Shown here one piece after another: positions 3,731 through 49,329 of a stretch of DNA of 64,000 nt (the stretch's first letter is position 1; each line of letters begins with the position of its first letter). Origin of the DNA: a virus. Both the position numbers and the translations under genes were made by a program. A model generated the notes under the pieces. The model saw only the letters and a list, made by a program, of their open reading frames with translations, made no database searches and was not told where the DNA came from. The stretch lies in IMG/VR virus record IMGVR_UViG_3300020599_000003, positions 1-64,000 of that record, one strand, 5' to 3'.

Positions 3731-3742
3731 CTGCTCGGTGGC

Positions 3743-4552
3743 ATGATGAAAGAAGAACAATCGCTGTACGATGTGCTGAAGGTCCCCCGCAACGCCAAAC
3801 CGCACGTCATCAAGGCGGCATATCGCGCCGAGGCCATGCGGCACCACCCTGATCGCTTGCCTCCCACTGCCACCGAAGAGGAGAAGGCTGCGGCCCTAGA
3901 ATCCTTCCAGAAGCTGCAAGACGCATACGATATCCTGATGGATCGTGAACGTCGCGAACAGTACGATCTGTCTGGTCAGGTGCCCAAGTCCAAACACCAG
4001 CTTGCCACGGAGGCTGCTGCGTTACTGCTCCAGGCGTTCACATCCGTCGTCGACCAGATGGCAACGCTGGTTGTAGAGAACCCTATCGCCGCCGAACACA
4101 TGCGGTCGCCGGTCGCTGTCATCCAGGACACCCTCAACGAACGCCTCGTCGACGTCCAGCAGCGTGTGCGTGCAGCCCGCGACAAACGCAAGGCTCTCAA
4201 GCGCGTTATCAAGGGGCTCCGCCGCAAGGACGGTGCGGATGTGTCGGCCACGCCCGTCATGCTCAGTCTCAACGAGCTGATCGTCGCGCAGGTCCGTAAC
4301 ATCGTCCTCGGTGAAACCGAGATGGAGGTGCTGCGCGTGGCCCTGAAGCTGAACGGTGAATGGGACTACACTAAGCCGCCCAAGTCTGAAGACGACTACG
4401 ACTCGATGTTGCAGCTCATGCGCCTCGCTTACGGCGATGCTGCGCCTCAGCCGACGGCTGCCGAAGCTGACGCCGAAGTCGAAGGTGACGACGGAGAGTG
4501 GCCTGACTGGGGAGAAAACAATGACGCTGAGCCTCAAGAACGCACCGCCTAA
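3743..4552 (+). CDS. J-domain (DnaJ-like) protein
   Basis: LYDVLKV...IKAAYR...HPDR...FQKLQDAYDIL...RREQYD; no Zn-finger or substrate-binding domain. Confidence 0.9.
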   Translation: MMKEEQSLYDVLKVPRNAKPHVIKAAYRAEAMRHHPDRLPPTATEEEKAAALESFQKLQDAYDILMDRERREQYDLSGQVPKSKHQLATEAAALLLQAFTSVVDQMATLVVENPIAAEHMRSPVAVIQDTLNERLVDVQQRVRAARDKRKALKRVIKGLRRKDGADVSATPVMLSLNELIVAQVRNIVLGETEMEVLRVALKLNGEWDYTKPPKSEDDYDSMLQLMRLAYGDAAPQPTAAEADAEVEGDDGEWPDWGENNDAEPQERTA

Positions 4553-4760
4553 CTTTCCCATCCAAGGGTCCGTGCCTGCCCTGCCTGAAGCTGGCACCGT
4601 GCAGCGTTGCCGCTTCACCGGCAACGGCGTCGAGTTCGCTGCTGTCATCTACGGCATCGCCCTGGACACCGTAACTCTGCGCCCTGTCCAACCCCTGCCG
4701 CCCGAGTGGCGTAGCATGGGATCAATCGAATTCCTCCCCGCCAACAAGGAGCAGTCATGA
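4521..4760 (+). CDS. Hypothetical protein
   Basis: RBS GGAG before ATG 4521. Confidence 0.6.
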   Translation: MTLSLKNAPPNFPIQGSVPALPEAGTVQRCRFTGNGVEFAAVIYGIALDTVTLRPVQPLPPEWRSMGSIEFLPANKEQS

Positions 4761-22773: not shown

Positions 22774-22783
22774 CAATTTTATG
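22774..22783 (+). promoter_or_regulatory. Recurrent motif CAATTTTATG, candidate phage promoter
   Basis: Exact copies at 41323-41332 (+) and 30038-30047 (-). Confidence 0.45.
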
Positions 22784-30037: not shown

Positions 30038-30047
30038 CATAAAATTG
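30038..30047 (-). promoter_or_regulatory. CAATTTTATG motif upstream of the fibre operon
   Basis: CATAAAATTG on + strand, 62 nt before the fibre ATG. Confidence 0.45.
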
Positions 30048-37518: not shown

Positions 37519-39768
37519 ATGCAGAACACAGTAGCCAACGTCTGGCGGTCGATCCTTCTACGGAAGGTCGGCCCATTCGACGACGTCTCTTTCGACATCC
37601 CGCTCGGCATCTCCACGATCTACGGGTTCAACACTAGCGCGCACGACCCGAACGCGGCCGGCAAGTCCATGCTGTTCTCGTCGATCTTCGACACGCTGTA
37701 CGAGAATCCGATCGCTGCTGAGAAGTCCGATCGCATCCGTGTCGGCGAGCGTGGTGTACGCATCGACCTACAAGGCAAGCCCCTGCTCCTCAAACGGGTC
37801 GGCTCCAAATCCCAACTGAAATTCGACGGTGCGCTCGTTCACGGGGCCACCAATGTTCGGCGCAAGCTGGACGACATCCTGCCGTGGACCTGGGAAGATG
37901 TAGTCACCTACATCCATCTGGACTCCCAGACCCCTCATCCCCTGGTCAAGGGTAGCAATGCTGATCGCAAGGCATTCCTGACCAAGTTCTTTGGCCTAGA
38001 CAAGATCGACGCCGAGAAGAAGATTATCAAGGCTGCTTATGAGAAGGTCTCCGGGGCGATTGATCGCTATGAAGCTCTAGAAGCCGATCGAGCCGAGCTC
38101 CAACCCAGGCTACCTCCCAAGGGCATGATCGAGAAGCTCACCGATCGAGCGAAGCGTATGCAGGCCCACTTGGATCAACTCCAGGAGGGTGCGGCAGAGG
38201 CTGACCAGGCACGTCGTGCAGCCCTATTCCGTGAGCAGGCCGCTGCTGAGCTCGATCACTACGCGAAGGCGTGCGACGAGGTTGGAAAGGAGGATTTACG
38301 CAGCCTGATCGCCGACTTCGAGAAGCAACTCTCGCGCAACATGGACCTCCTCGAGCAGGCTGGCGAATTCGAGGACTGGCAGGAGCGCAAGCAACGGTTC
38401 GACGAGTGGGCGCAGAACCTCAGCCCTGAGACCAAGGCATTTCTACGATCGGGGGCGGTAGACAAGAACCCTCAGGCCATTGCAGCCAAGCTCGACAAGG
38501 CACAGTATCGCTACGACGATTTGATTGCCGAGCAAGCTCGCCTCCGCCCCATTTGCGGGGCTAGGATCACGACGGTTGAAAAGCCGAAGCGTCCTCTGGG
38601 AGAAGCTCGTGCTAAGATGGAGTCGGCACAACATCAGCTCCAGCATGCGAAGAAATTCGGCGGCGGTTCCTGCCCTACATGCGGCCAGCACGTCAAGACT
38701 GCCAACACGGCGGAACTCACTAAGATCATCAACTTCGCCACTGCCTGCATCAAGCAGCACGAGGCTTATGAGGAGTATCAGTCCAAGGTCACCAAGCAGC
38801 AGGAAGCTCGCAAGCGCTTCAGCGAGTTGAAGGCCGAGTCCGATAAGATCCTCGCGTACATGCGAGCGCACGAGAAGTACCGCATCATCGCCGAGGAGCT
38901 GAGCAATGCCCCTAAGAATCCGGGTGAGTTCACTGGCAAGCGCATCATCGCCAAGGTAGTGCGCGGCGTCATCGACGAGCTGAACACTCGCCTACGAGCC
39001 CTCAAGTTTCTGGAATCCAACCACGACGTCTTCCAGCAGGCTCTGGAACTAGGTGAGAGTGCTGACTTCGCCAAGTCCAACGTCGAGCAAGTTGCCGCGC
39101 TGACCCGGGAGCTCACGCAGATCGAGGCCAAGCTGGCACGCGCGCGGGCTCTTACCGAGCAGTACGATGGCATCTTGGAGAAGATGGAGTCGCTCAAGAA
39201 GCACATCAACCGCGCCAAGGATCTGGAAGCTCTGCTGGCTGGCTACGACGACAAGGCCATGAAGAAGCTGGTCGTACAGGCCCTCAGCTCGCGCCTGGGC
39301 CAGCAGATCGCCAAGTATGCATCCATTGTGTTCCCGGAGTTCAAGTTCGAGCTCAAGTGGGATGCCCATCAGGTCGAGTTCTTGGTGCATCGTCACTTCC
39401 CGGACCGCGTTGATACCACTGATGTGCGACGCCTGTCCGGTGCTGAGACCAAGCTGTTCACTATCGTGCTGGTGATGGCACTGATGGCCTTCGTTCCCAG
39501 CGAGAAGCGTTCCTCAATGATCGTCCTGGACGAGCCTGCTGCAAACATGGGACCTGCCAACATTCAGCGCTTCCAAGAGCTCCTGCCGATGCTCAACAAG
39601 ATGATCCCGTCGGTAATCATCATCACGCCGAAGGCTGAGGAGCGCTATGGGGGACGAGAGTTCACTATTTGCAAGATGCGAGGCATCACCACTGTCGTGG
39701 AAGGCCACCCCTCAACAATCAAGCTGAAGCCGGTCAAGCGCATGGCTACCAAGAAGAGGAAAGCATGA
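37519..39768 (+). CDS. sbcC: SbcC/Rad50/gp46-like recombination ATPase
   Basis: NAAGKS Walker A, CPTCG Zn hook, LSGAE signature, VLDEP Walker B, long coiled coils. Confidence 0.9.
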   Translation: MQNTVANVWRSILLRKVGPFDDVSFDIPLGISTIYGFNTSAHDPNAAGKSMLFSSIFDTLYENPIAAEKSDRIRVGERGVRIDLQGKPLLLKRVGSKSQLKFDGALVHGATNVRRKLDDILPWTWEDVVTYIHLDSQTPHPLVKGSNADRKAFLTKFFGLDKIDAEKKIIKAAYEKVSGAIDRYEALEADRAELQPRLPPKGMIEKLTDRAKRMQAHLDQLQEGAAEADQARRAALFREQAAAELDHYAKACDEVGKEDLRSLIADFEKQLSRNMDLLEQAGEFEDWQERKQRFDEWAQNLSPETKAFLRSGAVDKNPQAIAAKLDKAQYRYDDLIAEQARLRPICGARITTVEKPKRPLGEARAKMESAQHQLQHAKKFGGGSCPTCGQHVKTANTAELTKIINFATACIKQHEAYEEYQSKVTKQQEARKRFSELKAESDKILAYMRAHEKYRIIAEELSNAPKNPGEFTGKRIIAKVVRGVIDELNTRLRALKFLESNHDVFQQALELGESADFAKSNVEQVAALTRELTQIEAKLARARALTEQYDGILEKMESLKKHINRAKDLEALLAGYDDKAMKKLVVQALSSRLGQQIAKYASIVFPEFKFELKWDAHQVEFLVHRHFPDRVDTTDVRRLSGAETKLFTIVLVMALMAFVPSEKRSSMIVLDEPAANMGPANIQRFQELLPMLNKMIPSVIIITPKAEERYGGREFTICKMRGITTVVEGHPSTIKLKPVKRMATKKRKA

Positions 39769-40535: not shown

Positions 40536-41272
40536 TGCCTATGTCCGCTTACATGCGTGTCTTCAATCTGCTGAACAGTTCGCCGGCTGCTATCAGTGCA
40601 ATCCTCAAGAACCTAGGAGTGTGGCACGGTCTGGTTCAGAAGTCCACTGGCTTGAAAATCCACAAGATCAAGGGCACTATCGACCAGAAGCTGCAACCCC
40701 TGAACGTAGTAGTCCTCTCCTCACTGGACTCCCTCAATCGGCTGGAACCCGTTGTGCCGACTCTGGTACTGAGCTCCTTCCCCAAGAGCCTCGTTGAGTG
40801 TGTGGAGGGCTGCATCGAGAACCTCGACACGGATCCCTCAAACCTCGAGGAGCGCATCCGCTATGCTCTATGGGAGGCATTAAAGCCTGGGGAGGTTCGG
40901 GTCCGCTTCAAGAAGAAGCTCCCGCACGAGCACATTGAATCCGTCAGTCCTCCGTCCTTCTTGGACAAGTACCAGACGATCCAATGCAAGATCAACCCGT
41001 ATTCGCTACGCCAGCAAGCCCACAAGATGGCGGTCGGCTACATTGCAGGCTCGGTAGCGAAGCGGGAGGCTGAGCGACTGTTCAATTCGTCTCTCAAGTT
41101 CAACCCCATGAAGGAACTCGTCATGGGTCCCGAGGGGGCAAAGCTCCGGGATGCTATCGCCCAAGTGTCCAGCGGGATGCCCATCGAGGACGTCACGGAG
41201 TCTACTGGAATCGACCAGTTCGAAATCACTTACATGATGAAGTCCTACAAGAAGTTGTACGGCATCAGGTGA
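40535..41272 (+). CDS. Hypothetical protein
   Basis: TGATG coupling. Confidence 0.7.
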   Translation: MPMSAYMRVFNLLNSSPAAISAILKNLGVWHGLVQKSTGLKIHKIKGTIDQKLQPLNVVVLSSLDSLNRLEPVVPTLVLSSFPKSLVECVEGCIENLDTDPSNLEERIRYALWEALKPGEVRVRFKKKLPHEHIESVSPPSFLDKYQTIQCKINPYSLRQQAHKMAVGYIAGSVAKREAERLFNSSLKFNPMKELVMGPEGAKLRDAIAQVSSGMPIEDVTESTGIDQFEITYMMKSYKKLYGIR

Positions 41273-41304
41273 GGTCGCTGCACGGCATCAAGTGAGGTCG
41301 CTGC
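41259..41304. repeat. 23-bp tandem duplication with one mismatch
   Basis: ACGGCATCAGGTGAGGTCGCTGC / ACGGCATCAAGTGAGGTCGCTGC, spanning a stop codon. Confidence 0.85.
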
Positions 41305-41322
41305 TGAACAGGGGTCCAGGCG

Positions 41323-41332
41323 CAATTTTATG
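41323..41332 (+). promoter_or_regulatory. CAATTTTATG motif
   Basis: Upstream of 41338 and the structural-type gene 41672. Confidence 0.45.
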
Positions 41333-41337
41333 GCACC

Positions 41338-41667
41338 ATGGCTACCTCAATCGAACTGCTCATTGCCCTCCCGAACGGGACCACGGCAACGGTGTACTTG
41401 GACCCGGCCTCTGTGTATCTGGTAGAGGTTCATACGGACGGGACTCTGGCGTATGTTCCGGCGGATGAGGTCGCCAACCTCGTCCTCTATGAGACTCCTG
41501 AAAAGGATCAATGGCCTCTCCTGAACTACGTCGTTGCCAACGTGATCCGCGCTCTCCCCAGCGATCACGAACCCGACTCCGGTGGCCTCTACTTCGATTC
41601 CCACCCCAATCCGTGCGCCTGCGTAACGACAACGGATGCCTCCCAATTCTTGCGATTCACGGAATAG
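41338..41667 (+). CDS. Hypothetical protein
   Basis: ORF directly after the motif. Confidence 0.6.
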   Translation: MATSIELLIALPNGTTATVYLDPASVYLVEVHTDGTLAYVPADEVANLVLYETPEKDQWPLLNYVVANVIRALPSDHEPDSGGLYFDSHPNPCACVTTTDASQFLRFTE

Positions 41668-41671
41668 AACC

Positions 41672-42727
41672 ATGCTCCAGCAACTGATCTCCCCGACCCC
41701 TTCCTACTTCGGCCGTCCCCTGGACAAGCCCTCCAAGCAGACCATCCTCGTTGCGATGGGTCGGCCGTCGGGCAAGATCTACGGGTACTTTTCCATCGCC
41801 GAGACCACCTTCGATGGCACGGAAACCGAGTTCACCATGCCTGACGGTAAGGTGCCGGTCCAGTCCATCACGCATCCGTCCTATCAGCACCCCACGGCCA
41901 ACACGCGGAACGCTGGCCTGCCTGATGGTCAGAACTACATGACGGGTGGTCGCCTGAACATCGCTCGCACGAACTCCCCGGTCGTGGGCCAATACATGGC
42001 TGCGGTGTGGGACGATGCTGAACTCACGAAAGCGCAGAAGGTCCACCGCTTCGGCACCAACTCCAGCAATCCGTCTGGGTTGCGCGGCGCTCCGGTCGGC
42101 AGTTTCGGCAGCGCCGTCACGAACTACCGAATGCAGAAGGGTCAGGAAGATATCGGACAGGCGGTTCCGGGATCGCTGACCGTCCCCTGGAGTGGCTTCT
42201 CGAATTTCGTGGACGTTTCGCACACTGGCTACGCCCATCTGTGGGTGAGTGCTCTGAACCTCACGCAAGACCGACTGACCCTTGGCGCTCTCATCCAGTC
42301 CCTGACGTTGGGCATGGGCTCTGTCGCCGCCAACTTCGATCCGGAGCCGCCGGTGCCTCCTGTCGTTGACAATCCCGATGCTACGATGCGCTGGTTCGCC
42401 AATATCTCGGAGTCGGCCCTGGTCGGAGAATGCCCGTACTTCGACTTTAATTGGGTGACCCTCTTCCAGGCGAAGAACCGGCAGTACGTCAATTCGCGCC
42501 TCGTCATCCCGCAGACCATCAAGCCCACTACCGTCCCCGAAGCCTTCAAGGTCTTCCTGGTAGGCTCGCCTACGGTGGTTACTGGCACCAACGTCACCTA
42601 TGACACTCTGCGGGTGCTTCTGGTGGATCCGTCGAAAGCTCCAGCTGGGGATTACGAGTTCGAGTTCGACGTGTCTACGGATCAGGGCACGACGCAAGTC
42701 AAACTCACCCTCACCGTGGCCGCGTAA
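41672..42727 (+). CDS. Probable virion structural protein with Ig-like C-terminus
   Basis: T/V/G-rich beta composition; GDYEFEFDVST...QVKLTLTV. Confidence 0.55.
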   Translation: MLQQLISPTPSYFGRPLDKPSKQTILVAMGRPSGKIYGYFSIAETTFDGTETEFTMPDGKVPVQSITHPSYQHPTANTRNAGLPDGQNYMTGGRLNIARTNSPVVGQYMAAVWDDAELTKAQKVHRFGTNSSNPSGLRGAPVGSFGSAVTNYRMQKGQEDIGQAVPGSLTVPWSGFSNFVDVSHTGYAHLWVSALNLTQDRLTLGALIQSLTLGMGSVAANFDPEPPVPPVVDNPDATMRWFANISESALVGECPYFDFNWVTLFQAKNRQYVNSRLVIPQTIKPTTVPEAFKVFLVGSPTVVTGTNVTYDTLRVLLVDPSKAPAGDYEFEFDVSTDQGTTQVKLTLTVAA

Positions 42728-42741
42728 CCTCCAACCCAAGC

Positions 42742-42773
42742 AAGGGCTCCTGATCGAAAGGTCGGGAGCCCTT
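42742..42773 (+). terminator. Intrinsic terminator
   Basis: AAGGGCTCCTGATC-GAAA-GGTCGGGAGCCCTT followed by CTT. Confidence 0.75.
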
Positions 42774-42841
42774 CTTGCGTTCTGGGACAGAAAAGCAGTA
42801 AATGATGTGCGTAGCACACCCCATTATAGGACAGGGCAGAC

Positions 42842-43924
42842 ATGCTGAAAGTAGCAATATCCGGCGATTCGTTGCAAGATGCGATGAAGATCGCCACCAC
42901 CATCGCACCTCCGATGACCGGCAACATAATCTTCGACGGGTCGCAACCGGGCAAGCTGGCAATAACCTCGATTGGCGAATCCACTCGCTGCCACCTGATA
43001 CTGCCGTGCCACTCGGAAGGCGACGATATCTTCTCCCTTCCCATACAGACCGCCATCTCCTCGACCAAAGGCCGCGCCGAGGTGCAACTCCTGTTCGACA
43101 AGTCTGTGCTGACTGTCAAATCGGGCAAGTACAAGACAGTGGCCGCAACGGTGGACGTCGTACGAGAGCCGCCGCTCCCCATGAAGGGGTTGGAGGGTAC
43201 GCGCATCGAACCTGAACAATCCGCGTGGTTGCTCCAGTCGTGCAAGGATGTCCTCATCAACCCCGACAAGGTTCTGGGTCAGAAGATCAGCCACGTTAGC
43301 TTCCAACTTACTGACGAGGGGGCCTTCATTGCCTCATACGACGGGGAGCGCATGGCCTATGCAATGACCAGCGAGGTCACCGGCAACATGGAGTTCACAC
43401 TCCCGCTGCAGACTTTGAAGTCTGTCCTCGAGACGTTCGGACAGTCCGTGTTCAAGATGTCCGTGCGGGACGGCGTCCTGTATGTGTGGAATGCCATTGG
43501 CTTCGCAACCCTCGCGCTGATCGCCCCTCAATTCACCATCCCCATGGAAGCAGTCATGGGCCGAGTCGAAGAGAGTCGGGCAAAACCCAAGGCCAAATTC
43601 CGATTGGATCTCAGCGAGGCCAAAGCATTCTTCGAGAATGCCAAGGCTGTAGCACGGGAGGGCGTCAAGAACAGCATCCACGTGAAGGTCGGGAAGTCCA
43701 CTACCAAGCTCGAACTGAAGTCTTCGTTCGGTAGCTCGGAGATCGAGCTTGAGTCCAAGGCCACTGGCGCATCCGAGTTCGATATCGACATGTCCTATCT
43801 GCAGGAGTTCATGGGGAAGAAGTTCCCGGACGTGCACGTCTTCGACACTTACATTTCCGGATATGATGCTGACACGGGCATGATCATTGCCCTCAACCAG
43901 CCGGAGTCGCCGAGTGCTGATTGA
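42842..43924 (+). CDS. Sliding clamp (DNA Pol III beta-like)
   Basis: 360 aa three-domain size; SYDGERMAY resembles beta ATDGHRLA; lies in the replication cluster. Confidence 0.7.
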   Translation: MLKVAISGDSLQDAMKIATTIAPPMTGNIIFDGSQPGKLAITSIGESTRCHLILPCHSEGDDIFSLPIQTAISSTKGRAEVQLLFDKSVLTVKSGKYKTVAATVDVVREPPLPMKGLEGTRIEPEQSAWLLQSCKDVLINPDKVLGQKISHVSFQLTDEGAFIASYDGERMAYAMTSEVTGNMEFTLPLQTLKSVLETFGQSVFKMSVRDGVLYVWNAIGFATLALIAPQFTIPMEAVMGRVEESRAKPKAKFRLDLSEAKAFFENAKAVAREGVKNSIHVKVGKSTTKLELKSSFGSSEIELESKATGASEFDIDMSYLQEFMGKKFPDVHVFDTYISGYDADTGMIIALNQPESPSAD

Positions 43925-44237
43925 CAGGCTTTCCCCGAGGATCTTCGCGCTGCGCATGGAGCCCGGTAGCCTGGAACCCATCGGCAAGCCGTTGGTGGAT
44001 TCCCTACTCCGCGTGTATCGCTGTCAGTCTGGTTTTCTCGTCGAGCATGTGTGGGGTGAGCTCATGTTCGGTGGCTACTACCTGTTCGCCCACCGCCCCG
44101 GCTTGCGCAAATTGACTGAGACAGACTCCGTGCTGCGCAACAAGGAGATCGTCGTGTTCAACACACCTAACAAGGCCACGCTCATCACATCTCCGATCGC
44201 CTCGGAGCTGATTCAGACTATTCTGGACGAGCAATGA
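43914..44237 (+). CDS. Hypothetical protein
   Basis: ORF between the clamp and NADAR genes; start uncertain. Confidence 0.5.
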   Translation: MLIDRLSPRIFALRMEPGSLEPIGKPLVDSLLRVYRCQSGFLVEHVWGELMFGGYYLFAHRPGLRKLTETDSVLRNKEIVVFNTPNKATLITSPIASELIQTILDEQ

Positions 44238-44647
44238 ACGAGATCACCTCCTTCGACGGGGAGTTCCGCTTCCTGTCCAACTTCCACTATGTGCCGCATC
44301 TTGGCACCACGGCCGAGCATCTGTACCAAGCTGCCAAGGCGGCCGACCCCATCGACATGATCCGCATCCTGGCGGCAGAAACACCGGGCCAAGCGAAGCG
44401 GCTGGGCGCACGCTGCAAGATGCGTGAGAACTGGGATCACATCAAGATCGGTGTCATGCGCGAGGTGATTGCGCAGAAATTCGAGGACCCGGACCTGCGT
44501 GACTTCCTCCTGTCCACCGGTGAGGCCCGCCTGATTGAAGGCAACACCTGGGGCGATAAGTTCTGGGGCGTGTGCGGTGGCGTCGGCCTCAACAACCTCG
44601 GCCTGCTTCTGATGGAGCGCCGCCAGCAACTGCGAGACGCCCTATGA
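44234..44647 (+). CDS. NADAR (YbiA-like) protein
   Basis: FLSNF...EHLYQAAK...AKRLG...WD..K..VM...KF...L..T....LIE...D.FWG...N.LG.LLME.R. Confidence 0.92.
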   Translation: MNEITSFDGEFRFLSNFHYVPHLGTTAEHLYQAAKAADPIDMIRILAAETPGQAKRLGARCKMRENWDHIKIGVMREVIAQKFEDPDLRDFLLSTGEARLIEGNTWGDKFWGVCGGVGLNNLGLLLMERRQQLRDAL

Positions 44648-44751
44648 GCTGGCGGACCGACGTTCCTAGTTCTATGCTCATCGGCGAACTGGTGGCTTGG
44701 GTTCTCGTCGTGGTCGGTATCAGCATCTACAACCTACTGGAGTTACTATGA
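44644..44751 (+). CDS. 35-aa single-TM peptide
   Basis: ATGA overlaps at both ends; LVAWVLVVVGISIY. Confidence 0.45.
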   Translation: MSWRTDVPSSMLIGELVAWVLVVVGISIYNLLELL

Positions 44752-45005
44752 GCAATCACGGCTATCATATCGAAGTGATCCCCAAGGGTGAGCTCGGTGA
44801 GCTTTCCAAAATCCAAGAAGAACTCTCCGAACTCCGCGACGCCATGGTGCAAGGCAGCCGGGTCATGGCACTGGTCGAACTCTCAGACACGGTCGGTGCC
44901 ATTCAGGCATTCCTCGACAAGCATTTCCCTGGCTTCACCATCGACGACCTGAAGACCTTCTCCAACATCACCAAGCGAGCCTTCGAGAATGGCCACCGCA
45001 AATAA
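44748..45005 (+). CDS. MazG-like all-alpha NTP pyrophosphatase
   Basis: KIQEELSEL...LVELSD (EExxE...ExxD). Confidence 0.6.
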   Translation: MSNHGYHIEVIPKGELGELSKIQEELSELRDAMVQGSRVMALVELSDTVGAIQAFLDKHFPGFTIDDLKTFSNITKRAFENGHRK

Positions 45006-45606
45006 CCTCGACACCGACAGCTTGGCCCTCATGCACGGCGCACTGAACCTCCTGTCCAGCGTAGGGTTCACGTTCGTCGATCTGCCGTGGGCGGTCTACA
45101 GCATGTATTCGGACGCCACCCGCCCGAAAGATGCGCGCGACTTCGAGACGCCGCTCGGGTCGCTGGTGGCATCTGGTGAGCAGAGCTTCCTGCAGATGTG
45201 GAATCGCAGAGAACTGCCACCACTGCTGAGCTCGCTTGGCTATGTTGGCTGGACTCCGTGCTTTCGTGATGAGCCAGTGCATGACGAGCTCCACCAAGGT
45301 GCGTTCTTGAAGGTGGAATGGTTTGTGCCGTTCCCGAAGGATCCTGGCAACGAGCTCCAGGCGCTCCTCGAAATCCAGAAGGTGGTGTTCATCTCGATGG
45401 CTCAGATGGTTGGCGTCGATCACGACACCGCCAAAGCAGGCATCGAGGTTGAGCAGACCGACACGCACGCCTACGACATCAATGTCGGCGGCATTGAAAT
45501 CGGCTCGTATGGGCTGCGCTACTTCATGGGTGGCATCTACCTGTATGGTACGGGGCTTGCGCTCCCCAGATTCAATGTCGCGTTCGCTAAATTGAGGAAC
45601 AAATGA
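44989..45606 (+). CDS. Stand-alone class II aminoacyl-tRNA-synthetase-like catalytic domain
   Basis: LVASGEQ, motif 2 CFRDE...H...F.K.E, DI...IEIGSYG, motif 3 GTGLALPR; only 205 aa. Confidence 0.65.
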   Translation: MATANNLDTDSLALMHGALNLLSSVGFTFVDLPWAVYSMYSDATRPKDARDFETPLGSLVASGEQSFLQMWNRRELPPLLSSLGYVGWTPCFRDEPVHDELHQGAFLKVEWFVPFPKDPGNELQALLEIQKVVFISMAQMVGVDHDTAKAGIEVEQTDTHAYDINVGGIEIGSYGLRYFMGGIYLYGTGLALPRFNVAFAKLRNK

Positions 45607-46163
45607 CCTCCATCCGTATTGGCGGCAAGCCCCAAGCGCGGAAGCCGCAACCGAGCCGTCTGACTCCGGAAGACCCCGAATACAAGACACTCATGCGCAT
45701 CCTGGCTGGGATGCAAAGCCGCATCAACATCGAGAAAGAGCGCAACGAAATCCTGACCCTGCATGAGTCGCGGAAGTCCTTGGGCCTGATGTCCAGCGCC
45801 AAGCGATATGACCCGCAGTATGTCTACGACTGCGTGTTGACAGATATGGCGTATCGGGGGCGCTTGGTCACGATGATCAAGCGCGTAAATAACACGGTGA
45901 CCCTCCTCGAACGTGCTGAGAAGGCATTCCGTGCCTACGCGCTCACGTCCTTCCGGGCGCAACTCGGCAGTACGCAGGGTGAGCGCACCAATGCCCTGGA
46001 CCGCATCTGTCGCCCGGTGCTGGATTTCAAGTCCGAATGCCAGGACCACGTTGCAGGCATCGAGGTAGTCATCAAGGACATTGATCAAGCATCCTTCGCT
46101 TACGCGAGGCTGGTCACGTTGCTCCAGCTCATGTCCGACTCAAAGGGCCCACGTAATATTTAG
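45603..46163 (+). CDS. Hypothetical helical protein
   Basis: ATGA overlap. Confidence 0.7.
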   Translation: MTSIRIGGKPQARKPQPSRLTPEDPEYKTLMRILAGMQSRINIEKERNEILTLHESRKSLGLMSSAKRYDPQYVYDCVLTDMAYRGRLVTMIKRVNNTVTLLERAEKAFRAYALTSFRAQLGSTQGERTNALDRICRPVLDFKSECQDHVAGIEVVIKDIDQASFAYARLVTLLQLMSDSKGPRNI

Positions 46164-46630
46164 GACCCAGACAGTATGCGCTCACCCTCTATTCTAGCCG
46201 AGCTGTATTCGAGCGGGAGCTTGACACTACCTAGAGCCCGGCCTTCTGTATCATAGAAGTGCATACTTCTGCTGATGATCTTATAAGTGAACGGGACCTC
46301 AGGTAATTTCAGCTTCAATTGCTTGATCCCGCCATTACCTGAGGTACCGTAGACTCGAGACCCTTCTTTAACACGGAACACTGCTTCAGCACACTTCTTA
46401 TGATCTCTCGGAAGCTGGCCAAGTATTAATCTCCTATTCTTAATCAGGATTTCACCTCGGCAATACCTACACCCGACACGTGACCAGAGTGGGATGACAT
46501 GGGCTTCAAGTAGAGTGAACAGGGGGGTTCTGGGCCGTTATCTTGGACTCCAGCACTTCAACGTCCATTCTGTGCGCTTCTGACTGATATTCTCTGTATC
46601 CATCTCGAGCCCACACCATCTTCCGCTGCT
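46160..46630 (-). other. A/T-richer segment with broken antisense ORF fragments, possibly a decayed mobile endonuclease
   Basis: RKMVWARDGYR and, in another frame, LEAHVIPLWS..CRYC. Confidence 0.25.
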
Positions 46631-46658
46631 TACTTTGGTTGGCAACGTCTTCACGCAT

Positions 46659-48209
46659 ATGACACAGCAGAAAGAACGCATCATACGAATATACAAGGCA
46701 GAGGCGCTCTACCTCAGAAGCTCCGATGTACCTGAGCCAATCAAGGAAACGTTGTACAATCGGTACACCGTGAGGTTCTATGCGGAGAAGGTGTGTGCCA
46801 AGTGCGAGCATGGCCCCTATCGTCACACGGAAGAGTTCTGCCAACCGTGCGGAGCATTCACGGGCGAAGTCCGCCTGTCCGGTGAGTACAAGGTCGGCAA
46901 GGAGAAGTATGTCAAGGTCCCGCTCGGCGACCGCCTCCAAGTCACGTCCTACCTCAATAGTAAGGGCTTCAATCTCAAGCTGTTCGACAAGACGCCGCAG
47001 GCCCGTAAGTATCCCATGCGGTTCATCGGCACCCTGAAGGACTACCAAAAGGACGTACCGGCCAAGCTCAAGAGAGCCAAGCGCGGCGTGCTGAAAGCGC
47101 CTCCGCGTACCGGCAAGACGGTGATGGCGTGCGCCACTATCTGCCATATTGGTGGTAAGGCGCTCATCCTGGCCGCACAGCGTGAATGGCTCGACGGCTT
47201 CTACGACACCTTCATGGGGTCGGCCACGACCCAGAAGATGTCGAATCTACCGAAGCACATGATCGGGTACTGTAAGAAGCCGAGCGACTTCGAGAAGTAC
47301 GCAGTGTGCCTCGCCACGTACCAGACGTTCATCAGCGAGAATGGCCACAAGGTTCTGGAGAAGGTCCGCAACCTCTTCTCCACCGTCATAGTCGATGAGG
47401 CACATGGTCTTGCGGCCCAACATTTCCTGCGCACCATATCCCGCTTCAACGCCGAGTACGTATTCGGCCTGACCGCGACCCCTGGACGTAAGGACGGCAT
47501 GTACAAACTGGTGGACATGGTGCTAGGTCGCGTCGTCCACGAGATCAAGCGCGAGATGCTACGCCCCAAGTGGATTCCGGTTCGGACGCAATTCAGGGAC
47601 AACCGCAGTAGCGGACTGTGGGCCAATCTCGTCAAGCGCCTGGAGAAGGACCCGAAGCGACTCAAGCTGATCGCGGAATACGCGGTGAAGGATATCCGGT
47701 CCGGGCACGTCGTGTTGATCCCGTTCTCGCAGGTGGCCCCGGTGCGTGCGCTGGTGCAAGCCATCAACAAGATCGCTGGCGAGAAGGTAGCCTACGAGTT
47801 CAGTGGTAGTCTGCGCAAGGATGTCCGCAAGAAGCTGATTGCCGACGCGCAGCAGGGTCTCATCCCATGCCTCGTTGGCACCATCAAGTTGCTCTCGGTC
47901 GGCACCAACATCCCACCTGCCAGTGCGCTGTACGAGGTAGCTCTGTCGGCCAACGTCTATTCCGCCGAACAGCGCATCGCCCGTATATTGACGCCGCACG
48001 ACGGTAAACCCGACCCTATCGTCCGATTCTTCATGGACGAGTACAAGGTGCGCAAGTCCTGCGCCCGTGTGGAGTGGTTCGGCGTGATACGTAAAAAGTT
48101 CAACCCTCTGATTTCCCCCAAGGATGAAGAAATCTTCGTGGGTTGGATGTCTGGCAAGAACGACGCTATGGACTACGGTTCGCGCAAACGACCTCTTTTA
48201 GGATGGTGA
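46659..48209 (+). CDS. uvsW: Superfamily 2 helicase, UvsW-like
   Basis: APPRTGKT, IVDEAH, GLTATP.RKDG, EQRIARILT. Confidence 0.85.
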   Translation: MTQQKERIIRIYKAEALYLRSSDVPEPIKETLYNRYTVRFYAEKVCAKCEHGPYRHTEEFCQPCGAFTGEVRLSGEYKVGKEKYVKVPLGDRLQVTSYLNSKGFNLKLFDKTPQARKYPMRFIGTLKDYQKDVPAKLKRAKRGVLKAPPRTGKTVMACATICHIGGKALILAAQREWLDGFYDTFMGSATTQKMSNLPKHMIGYCKKPSDFEKYAVCLATYQTFISENGHKVLEKVRNLFSTVIVDEAHGLAAQHFLRTISRFNAEYVFGLTATPGRKDGMYKLVDMVLGRVVHEIKREMLRPKWIPVRTQFRDNRSSGLWANLVKRLEKDPKRLKLIAEYAVKDIRSGHVVLIPFSQVAPVRALVQAINKIAGEKVAYEFSGSLRKDVRKKLIADAQQGLIPCLVGTIKLLSVGTNIPPASALYEVALSANVYSAEQRIARILTPHDGKPDPIVRFFMDEYKVRKSCARVEWFGVIRKKFNPLISPKDEEIFVGWMSGKNDAMDYGSRKRPLLGW

Positions 48210-48555: not shown

Positions 48556-49037
48556 ACCTGGAGCAACTATACCAGAACAATCTGGGCCTTCTGCACCACC
48601 CAGGTCTGCGCGGCGCAATCTACTTCATTCAGGAGTACGCGCTTCGCTACCAGGAGGTCGTGACCGGGGACCAGTACCCAATCCTCAAGCTACTAGGTGT
48701 CAAGGGTAAGCATTCGTTCTTCGAGGCGCGTTGGGCCAACGACGAGCGACTGCACAACCTCGTATGGTACGACGTGTTCGCTCAGGAAGAATCCACCTGC
48801 GACTGGACGGCGTTCCAGCTCTGCCTGGGATACGAGAACAAGCTCTTCGACCTGGACGGCAAGGAAGTAAATAAGTACGGTCGCTGGGTGCGGTTCGCTG
48901 CAAATCGCCCCGGCGACGATGCCTTTCTCGTGGAAAGGATCATCAACACATACGAACTCTCGATAGCCAAGCCGGTTGTCGCAGAGCTCCCAATCGAGGA
49001 ACCTCATGAAAGCAATCTGGAAGTTCGGTCTAGCTGA
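48552..49037 (+). CDS. Hypothetical protein
   Basis: ATGA overlap. Confidence 0.6.
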   Translation: MNLEQLYQNNLGLLHHPGLRGAIYFIQEYALRYQEVVTGDQYPILKLLGVKGKHSFFEARWANDERLHNLVWYDVFAQEESTCDWTAFQLCLGYENKLFDLDGKEVNKYGRWVRFAANRPGDDAFLVERIINTYELSIAKPVVAELPIEEPHESNLEVRSS

Positions 49038-49329
49038 AAGCTGCACCGTCGAAATGCCCAAGGGCGCACGCATCCTGACTGTGCGTGAGCAGGGCAACGA
49101 CGTGGCTCTGTGGGTGGAAGTGGACCCCAAGGCACCGCGTGAGAAGCGCGAGTTCCGCCTCTTCGGCACGGGCTTCGAGCTCCCTGGCAACAAGCTGATG
49201 AACTACCTGGGCACCGCGATGCTCATGGGTGGCAGTCTGGTGCTGCACGCCTACGAAGTACTCCCTCACGACCCCGCCAAGACCCTCGTGGCAGGAATCA
49301 CTTATCGCAACGGCCCCACCGGAGGTTGA
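49006..49329 (+). CDS. Conserved small phage protein
   Basis: MKAIWKF.L...MPKGA.IL.V..Q...LW..VD...F...GTG...YLGT pattern. Confidence 0.75.
   Translation: MKAIWKFGLAESCTVEMPKGARILTVREQGNDVALWVEVDPKAPREKREFRLFGTGFELPGNKLMNYLGTAMLMGGSLVLHAYEVLPHDPAKTLVAGITYRNGPTGG

Follow-up and report, generated by a model that had tools for sequence, protein, structure and literature searches.

A reduced seryl-tRNA synthetase-like core and its MazG-like partner form a conserved gene pair in large phages and in CPR and DPANN cells

The window analysed here covers the first 64 kb of an IMG/VR phage record of 177,803 bp (IMGVR_UViG_3300020599_000003), a genome with direct terminal repeats and ~58% G+C. Within it lie two overlapping genes that recur together across phages and cells with reduced genomes. 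One encodes an 85-amino-acid (aa) protein of HisE/MazG type, and the other a 205-aa protein that we confidently assign to the class II aminoacyl-tRNA synthetase (aaRS) fold, specifically to a seryl-tRNA synthetase (SerRS)-like form of it. We propose, at roughly even odds (about 0.5), that the real unit at this locus is a two-gene, nucleotide-centred enzyme pair, consisting of a tRNA-independent adenylate former and a pyrophosphohydrolase, with a role neither in translation nor in dedicated counter-defence. An initial annotation of the window, made from the sequence, had placed both genes in a single module with three neighbours, namely a NADAR-domain gene, a short transmembrane (TM) peptide and a gene for a 186-aa protein (p186). 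The synthetase core, the MazG-like partner and their pairing held up in our analysis; the five-gene module did not. The two genes of the pair are as follows.

44748-45005, + strand: HisE/MazG-type all-alpha nucleoside triphosphate (NTP) pyrophosphohydrolase-like protein, 85 aa, phrog_6408
44989-45606, + strand: mini SerRS-like class II aaRS catalytic core, 205 aa, phrog_4806

The 205-aa protein matched phrog_4806 at E 9e-31, a family annotated as 'histidyl tRNA synthetase', and contains class II motif 2 (CFRDEPVHDELHQGAFLKVE) and motif 3 (YGTGLALPR), both of which the initial annotation had read correctly. In an alignment of 55 diverse family members, 21 positions were invariant, among them S62xE64, R93, F106xK108xE110, E170xxS173 and T188x5R194; P33 of motif 1 was nearly invariant, and motif 3 was present as G187-T188-G-L-A191-L-P193-R194. 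These residues reproduce the SerRS active-site pattern with matching spacing, S62xE64 corresponding to TxE, R93xE95 to RxE, F106xK108xE110 to FxKxE, E170xxS173 to ExxS and T188x5R194 to Tx5R. Their counterparts in Thermus thermophilus SerRS are the ATP-, Mg- and serine-binding residues T225/E227, R256/E258, F275/E279, E345/S348 and T380/R386. The conservation of this pattern with exact spacing suggests that the protein would form an aminoacyl-adenylate, the amino acid being most probably serine or one closely analogous to it.

Profile and structure comparisons pointed to the same family. A search of the PDB with the single sequence (phmmer) gave no match, and the family profile returned SerRS chains first (E 4.6e-7), with PylRS and AspRS far behind. 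The AlphaFold2 model of the protein had a predicted local distance difference test score (pLDDT) of 95.9 and a predicted TM-score (pTM) of 0.92. Foldseek returned only class II synthetase cores for this model (SerRS, then PylRS and HisRS, TMq 0.60-0.67), with at least 500 class II aaRS chains at E <= 0.001 and SerRS as the best match (E 3.1e-9, TMq 0.66). Alignment of the family with five canonical SerRS sequences, taken from Candidate Phyla Radiation (CPR) and DPANN genomes, gave an hhalign probability of 96.8% and an E value of 2.9e-10. This match spans only columns 177-343 of the 411 SerRS columns and stops at GSYG; S62xE64 and the motif-2 residues are aligned within it as well as in the PDB SerRS alignment, and ExxS and Tx5R, which lie beyond it, were matched by spacing to the SerRS consensus. 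Together these results bear out the initial proposal of an aaRS-II fold that has no anticodon-binding domain. Among domain libraries, the NCBIfam scan gave no match at E <= 0.1, including to the SerRS model TIGR00414, and the Pfam scan returned tRNA-synt_2 alone (E 0.16).

The protein keeps the complete active site and is, to our knowledge, the smallest SerRS-derived core described, being far shorter than the ~420 aa of SerRS. It begins ~10 residues ahead of the motif-1 helix and therefore does not include the Seryl_tRNA_N coiled-coil arm. Its motif-2 loop is 6 residues shorter than that of SerRS and has none of the SerRS basic residues, and roughly half of the SerRS residues that separate ExxS from motif 3 are missing. 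Across the 55-member family, R177 is the sole conserved basic residue outside the ATP site, and all members are acidic, with isoelectric points (pI) of 4.6-6.5. As everything that SerRS uses to hold tRNA-Ser has been lost, we infer that the acceptor is not a tRNA. We considered whether the family could supply the SerRS of reduced genomes, and rejected this because a full-length serS scoring above the TIGR00414 cut-off was also found in each of the five CPR or DPANN genomes tested. A role in serving phage-encoded tRNAs was likewise rejected for this phage, since neither the window nor the whole 177.8-kb genome contains a tRNA gene; the pair is thus not tied to tRNA-rich phages.

Longer forms of the core also exist. 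The core of CbK-like Caulobacter phages has at its N-terminus a domain resembling the C-terminal domain (CTD) of the RNA polymerase alpha subunit, a helix-hairpin-helix domain matched by PF03118 at E 8e-6 (for example at positions 3734-4588 of locus L002, Caulobacter phage CcrPW, and likewise in CcrColossus). By its sequence, this domain may explain why the gene is annotated as an RNA polymerase alpha subunit CTD in CbK-like phages, and it hints at nucleic-acid binding by the core in that lineage. Another longer form is a single 443-aa protein, whose C-terminal half has no assignable family. Besides the alpha-CTD-like N-terminus, Pfam scans of the longer MazG-like and aaRS-like open reading frames (ORFs) gave only weak PRA-PH, tRNA-synt_2 and tRNA-synt_2d matches. 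In public phage annotations, the core appears as 'histidyl tRNA synthetase', 'seryl-tRNA synthetase', 'RNA polymerase alpha CTD protein' or a hypothetical protein, and at least the first two of these names are misleading.

The 85-aa protein matched phrog_6408 at E 7e-38, a family with no annotated function. The EExxE and ExxD motifs noted initially are present as EELSE...ELSD, and in an alignment of 38 diverse sequences K21, E24, E25, E28, E44 and D47 were invariant. The family also has motifs of its own, GYH..I.KG.LGE at the N-terminus and T.RAF.NG.R at the C-terminus. In a PDB profile search, the HisE structure 2a7w was reached at E 0.13 with the motifs aligned. The AlphaFold2 model (pLDDT 91.5) is a helical hairpin with two short helices; Foldseek and VIA-align matched it to several HisE/MazG entries, such as 1yvw (Z 5.8 in VIA-align, root-mean-square deviation 2.2 over 63 residues), 2a7w, 1vmg, 2yxh and 3cra, along with many unrelated hairpins. 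Alignment of the family with genuine HisE/MazG domains from five genomes gave an hhalign probability of 73.6% (E 2.9e-5), with the K, EE, E, E and D residues in register. The MazG-like or HisE-like identity first suggested for this protein is therefore upheld, and membership in the all-alpha NTP-pyrophosphohydrolase superfamily is likely but not proven from these comparisons. A carrier-protein role was considered and rejected, since Ser46 is replaced by A or C in some members while the acidic motifs stay invariant.

The 85-aa family is large and its domain architecture is varied. Among 1.84 billion representative sequences searched, it comprised 1,067 clusters at 50% identity (E <= 0.001). The best 150 of these representatives included 103 stand-alone proteins, 15 tandem duplications of the MazG-like domain in one chain (P0191-P0195, P0197, P0206 and others), 3 fusions to the aaRS-like core and 29 proteins with other extensions. 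The tandem forms fit the dimeric unit of all-alpha NTP pyrophosphohydrolases, and the core fusions occurred in both orders.

Conservation of the two genes as a unit, which the initial annotation took as a test of its own reading, is borne out by the distribution of the pair. Searches of phage records with tblastn found the 205-aa protein in 266 of them and its partner in 270, and the hosts were the same for both (Escherichia 112 and 113, Acinetobacter 60 and 59, and Caulobacter 13 and 13, respectively). Across phages, the partner is ~60% identical and the core ~33%. Of the 82 viral loci that we examined, 80 are on IMG/VR contigs and 2 in named phages; in 78-79 of them a MazG-like gene lies on the same strand within ~2 kb of the core. 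This gene precedes the core in 62 loci and follows it in 16, lies within 60 nt of it in 42, and is fused to it in a single ORF in 3. Besides the two genes themselves, no other family was found near the pair in more than 14 of these 82 loci. Cellular genome assemblies contributed a further 29 loci, with Saccharibacteria, other CPR bacteria and DPANN archaea making up many of them. Both genes occur in 25 of these, 5 times as a fusion, which brings the fusions in loci to eight. In the viral and cellular pairs alike, the two genes are always on one strand, come in either order and mostly lie within 60 nt of each other. In four Saccharibacteria-type loci, the pair sits beside rpoC, rpsG and rpsL, indicating that it is chromosomal in CPR/DPANN-type cells, and a Mur ligase recurs in another four. 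Genes of nucleotide metabolism are among the neighbours, with ribonucleotide reductase subunits and a dNMP kinase in one phage lineage, and NUDIX (8), AAA_28 kinase (4) and NrdR (4) genes in the cellular loci; in the window itself, the nucleotide-related context consists of the clamp and helicase genes described below. The range of the system extends over E. coli, Acinetobacter, Caulobacter and Campylobacter phages, jumbo phages, and reduced CPR and DPANN genomes. Our literature search found no paper on the pair. A survey of jumbo phages mentions MazG-like and NADAR proteins in general terms only (PMC7824862), and a report on NARP3 (PMC13464706) proved unrelated to the pair.

We can postulate how such a pair would work. 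The 205-aa core would bind ATP along with a small amino acid, serine or a near analogue being the most likely, form the aminoacyl-adenylate, and hand the activated amino acid, or AMP, to an acceptor other than tRNA, presumably a small molecule. The 85-aa protein would be a Mg-dependent nucleotide pyrophosphohydrolase of HisE/MazG type, probably a dimer, acting in the pathway of the core by making or clearing its nucleotide substrate or product. The two proteins probably touch each other, as the eight fusions in the loci and the presence of both fusion orders among the representatives suggest. The pair would then be part of a nucleotide-centred housekeeping function common to large phages, CPR cells and DPANN cells, with NADAR, the TM peptide and p186 as neighbours within a long early/replication operon. 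The counter-defence role initially suggested fits less well than such a housekeeping, nucleotide-centred role with a chromosomal CPR/DPANN pair beside rpoC, rpsG and rpsL.

Comparison with known systems places the core closest to the catalytic domain of bacterial-type SerRS (class IIa), with which it shares the fold, motifs 1-3, the five active-site signatures, and its best sequence and profile matches. It differs from SerRS in the losses described above, in its lack of a TIGR00414 match, in coexisting with a full serS in cells, and in being paired nearly always with a MazG-like gene. The SerRS-like amino acid:carrier-protein ligases are truncated homologues of methanogen-type SerRS that have no tRNA-binding domain and load a small amino acid onto a non-tRNA acceptor. 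They are similar to our core in being SerRS-derived without a tRNA-binding domain; unlike them, the core resembles bacterial-type SerRS and has no carrier-protein gene nearby, its constant neighbour being the 85-aa protein, with a varying Ser46 and invariant acidic MazG motifs. That neighbour, in turn, is like HisE (phosphoribosyl-ATP pyrophosphohydrolase) and MazG in its aligned K, EExxE and ExxD residues, its helical hairpin model and its tandem forms, and unlike them in scoring under the PF01503 cut-off and in having its own N- and C-terminal motifs. In the PurZ-MazZ system of diaminopurine (Z-genome) phages, a MazG-like pyrophosphohydrolase feeds a nucleoside monophosphate to an adjoining nucleotide ligase that uses an amino acid. 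The operon logic may be similar here, although the resemblance would be one of logic only, as PurZ is an adenylosuccinate-synthetase homologue, unlike the aaRS core, and no Z-genome genes were seen in this phage. EpmA/PoxA, AsnA, HisZ, GluQRS/YadB and MshC are aaRS cores stripped of anticodon- or tRNA-binding parts and reused for other acceptors. We know of none among them that is SerRS-derived, this small, or accompanied by an obligate MazG-type partner, and the core gave no sequence match to them in the Pfam, PDB-profile and NCBIfam searches.

Because the proposed unit is limited to two genes, the status of the surrounding genes needs to be considered. The features around the pair are as follows.

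37519-39768: SbcC/Rad50-like gene, 749 aa
39669-40535, + strand: RlaP-family nucleotidyltransferase (PF10127 at E 2.1e-20), following the SbcC/Rad50-like gene
42842-43924, + strand: sliding-clamp-like gene, phrog_947
43914-44237, + strand: 107-aa ORF with a GTG start, between the clamp gene and the NADAR gene
44234-44647, + strand: NADAR-domain protein, 137 aa, PF08719, phrog_1017
44644-44751, + strand: 35-aa hydrophobic TM ORF, an uncertain gene, in the gap between the NADAR and MazG-like genes
45603-46163, + strand: 186-aa protein (p186), phrog_17451
46635-48209, + strand: ResIII/DEAD helicase, downstream of p186
48976-49329: DUF7352 protein (PF24043 at E 7.8e-22), downstream of the helicase

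All five ORFs that the initial annotation had chained together by ATGA or short overlaps lie where it placed them. The junctions, read directly, are four ATGA overlaps (at 44234, 44644, 44748 and 45603) and a 17-nt overlap between the 85-aa and 205-aa genes (44989-45005). The chain does not stop there, however, since the 107-aa ORF overlaps the NADAR gene by 4 nt and the clamp gene by 11 nt. Overlap is therefore the building style of this operon and not the mark of a five-gene module. A scan of 41200-46800 found no promoter-like or terminator-like site, and together with overlaps that reach the clamp gene upstream this indicates that the five genes are part of a longer polycistronic run.

Gene order in relatives further separates the pair from its neighbours. 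In three contigs whose cores are 53-63% identical to that of this phage (L084, L085 and L121), the order is clamp, 107-aa gene, NADAR, MazG-like gene, core and a gene of 169-182 aa. In L084 and L085, it extends to the helicase, RlaP lies a few kb upstream, and the DUF7352 gene keeps its position. The 107-aa gene holds the same position in these three contigs and in L118. The TM ORF, which fills the gap between the NADAR and MazG-like genes exactly with an ATGA overlap at each end, is a ~100-nt insertion found only in the species of this phage (it is called as a gene in L118 and L120) and L084, L085 and L121 do not have it, their NADAR and MazG-like genes being directly adjacent. The NADAR protein matched PF08719 at E 5.6e-22 (79.2 bits against a cut-off of 35.1) and phrog_1017 at E 6e-37, and scored 68.2 bits against TIGR02464, under its cut-off of 73.7. 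Activities of NADAR proteins include removal of ADP-ribose from guanine (DarG1 type) and cleavage of riboflavin intermediates (YbiA type). p186 matched phrog_17451 at E 2.4e-28, had no Pfam or NCBIfam match, and was not found by tblastn around the pair in any of the 82 viral loci. When these loci were surveyed with the proteins of this phage, NADAR, the TM ORF, p186, the clamp and the helicase were all undetected near the pair. NADAR, the TM peptide and p186 are thus lineage-level neighbours that lie outside the conserved unit, leaving the pair beyond the close relatives of this phage. Two genes do recur elsewhere. Three unrelated lineages have NADAR separated from the system by no more than one gene, namely that of this phage, L060 (NADAR, core, cupin, MazG-like) and L137 (cupin-MazG fusion, 59-aa gene, NADAR), and this recurrence may reflect a loose link between NADAR and the system. 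RlaP, which lies 4.2 kb upstream of the pair here, is also near it in the rV5-like E. coli phage UPEC06 and the jumbo contig L014, making three lineages among ~110 loci.

Several observations weigh against the enzyme-pair reading. The acidic pI of the core is compatible with tRNA binding, as E. coli SerRS is also acidic. The MazG assignment of the 85-aa protein comes from its motifs and the 73.6% hhalign probability; its best Pfam match, PRA-PH (PF01503), scored E 0.011 and 16.5 bits, below the cut-off of 21.3, and the structural matches of its model were no better than those to common unrelated helical hairpins. The association of the two genes can also be broken. In three near-identical contigs from other samples (L118, L119 and L120), whose core is 99% identical to that of this phage, the MazG-like gene has lost 1 nt within the EE codons and, through a 57-nt deletion, the ExxD helix (L118:2200-2525, L119:2200-2525 and L120:50-375, aligned with window positions 44630-45010). 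The aaRS-like gene, which differs by a single substitution, is otherwise intact, as are the flanks. Judged from these sequences, the contigs are a natural knock-out of the MazG-like partner. In the complete genome of Acinetobacter phage Acj61, too, the core is intact and a MazG-like gene could not be detected, so that the core can be kept where its partner is missing; conversely, L137 has a MazG-like (cupin) fusion with no aaRS-like gene within 8 kb. The two enzymes are therefore not strictly interdependent. The RlaP and NADAR neighbours in a few lineages fit a role at RNA ends instead.

Such a role is the alternative that we weigh most heavily, while considering it unlikely. The core would work together with RlaP and NADAR in repairing or protecting RNAs, by aminoacylating or otherwise acting on the 3' ends of host tRNAs or of RNAs of other kinds, and the MazG-like protein would strip a blocking pyrophosphate or nucleotide. 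The positions of RlaP in this phage, UPEC06 and L014, the NADAR genes adjoining the system in three lineages, and the helix-hairpin-helix domain on the core of CbK-like phages are consistent with this, and class II cores are able to charge acceptor-stem minihelices. However, the phage encodes no tRNA, the core has no tRNA-binding arm and only a shortened motif-2 loop stripped of basic residues, R177 is the one conserved basic residue beyond the ATP site in a uniformly acidic family, and RlaP accompanies the pair in so few lineages. E. coli SerRS without its arm, moreover, loses tRNA charging. The five-gene counter-defence system, directed for example against DarT-type ADP-ribosylation and comprising NADAR, the TM peptide, the MazG-like and aaRS-like proteins and p186, is the weakest of the rivals, and we think it very improbable. 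The five genes do overlap head to tail, their order is kept in L084, L085 and L121 with the exception of the TM ORF, and NADAR again adjoins the system in L060 and L137. Yet none of NADAR, TM and p186 was found near the pair in other viral loci, the TM ORF is confined to one species, the overlaps continue upstream as a general style of the genome, and the pair is chromosomal in CPR and DPANN cells.

Two further possibilities would leave the fold assignments in place and alter the chemistry. The core could be a synthase of diadenosine tetraphosphate (Ap4A) or related Ap4N dinucleotides, for which seryl-adenylate would be a mere intermediate used to adenylylate a second NTP, with the MazG-like protein binding that NTP or trimming the product. 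Thermus thermophilus SerRS makes Ap4A from seryl-adenylate and ATP, the full SerRS adenylate site is conserved here, and the context is nucleotide-centred, including the NUDIX neighbours in 8 of the 29 cellular loci. However, a synthase fused to an enzyme that hydrolyses what it makes would be pointless, and the normal aaRSs of every cell already give Ap4A as a side reaction, so that we regard it as quite improbable. Slightly more doubtful still is a regulatory pseudo-synthetase, in which a non-catalytic aaRS-like protein would sense an amino acid or ATP and control the MazG-like enzyme, in the manner of HisZ and HisG; HisZ is a precedent for an aaRS paralogue serving as a regulatory subunit. 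The greater conservation of the partner across phages and the existence of core-MazG-like fusions favour this view, while the invariance of all the catalytic residues of the adenylation site in 55 diverse members, and the intact aaRS-like gene where the MazG-like gene is lost, argue against it.

A possible third, optional component of the system, judging from its sequence, is a ~170-aa cupin-like domain (phrog_4784) with a 3-His cupin-type pattern (HFWHP, HDHRY.F.S.VL.G and FHR). In 9 of the 111 viral and cellular loci (L014, L017, L056, L060, L077, L091, L097, L106 and L107), the domain either forms a fusion with the MazG-like protein, before or after it, or is encoded alongside, and it occurs in 10 of the best 150 MazG-like representatives (e.g. 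P0222 and P0308). It is absent from the genome of this phage. A profile of the cupin-MazG fusion gave no match in the PDB. The leads to its function are weak and converge on thiol dioxygenases: phrog_4786, annotated 'cysteine dioxygenase', matched at E 4.9e-6 and Cupin_2 at E 0.075, the Atlas features CDO_I and PCO_ADO stood at 0.77-0.78, and Atlas structure matches to cupin proteins had TM values of 0.57-0.69 by row.

Under the proposed two-enzyme reading, one more specific and highly speculative scenario is that the pair belongs to a pathway in which, independently of tRNA, an amino acid is attached to a free nucleotide or to a cofactor derived from one, or a modified nucleotide is built in some other way, and which the cupin and NADAR N-glycosidase extend in some lineages. 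If true, this would be a new branch of nucleotide metabolism common to large phages, CPR bacteria and DPANN archaea. The aaRS paralogues that act outside translation (AsnA, EpmA, HisZ, GluQRS and the carrier-protein ligases) have each brought unexpected chemistry. Homologues are carried by culturable E. coli phages (Vequintavirinae), making the function directly testable, and the answer would fill a gap in our understanding of how large phages and ultra-small symbionts use the nucleotides and amino acids of their hosts.

Some minor features of the region were also recorded. A megablast search of the region against phage records gave only a 32-nt chance match, and the Rfam, promoter/terminator and repeat scans of the region returned nothing relevant. 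The sequence CAATTTTATG occurs in three exact copies, at 41323-41332, shortly before this gene run, at 22774-22783, and at 30038-30047 (- strand). With one mismatch allowed, it gave 4 matches against 1.0 expected, a number that 4 of 100 shuffles reached, and the signal is therefore weak. Between p186 and the helicase, a 470-nt gap (46164-46634) contains no + strand gene and had no match in Rfam; it holds an imperfect 33-nt inverted repeat (46286-46355), and in relatives the corresponding interval contains one or two additional genes.

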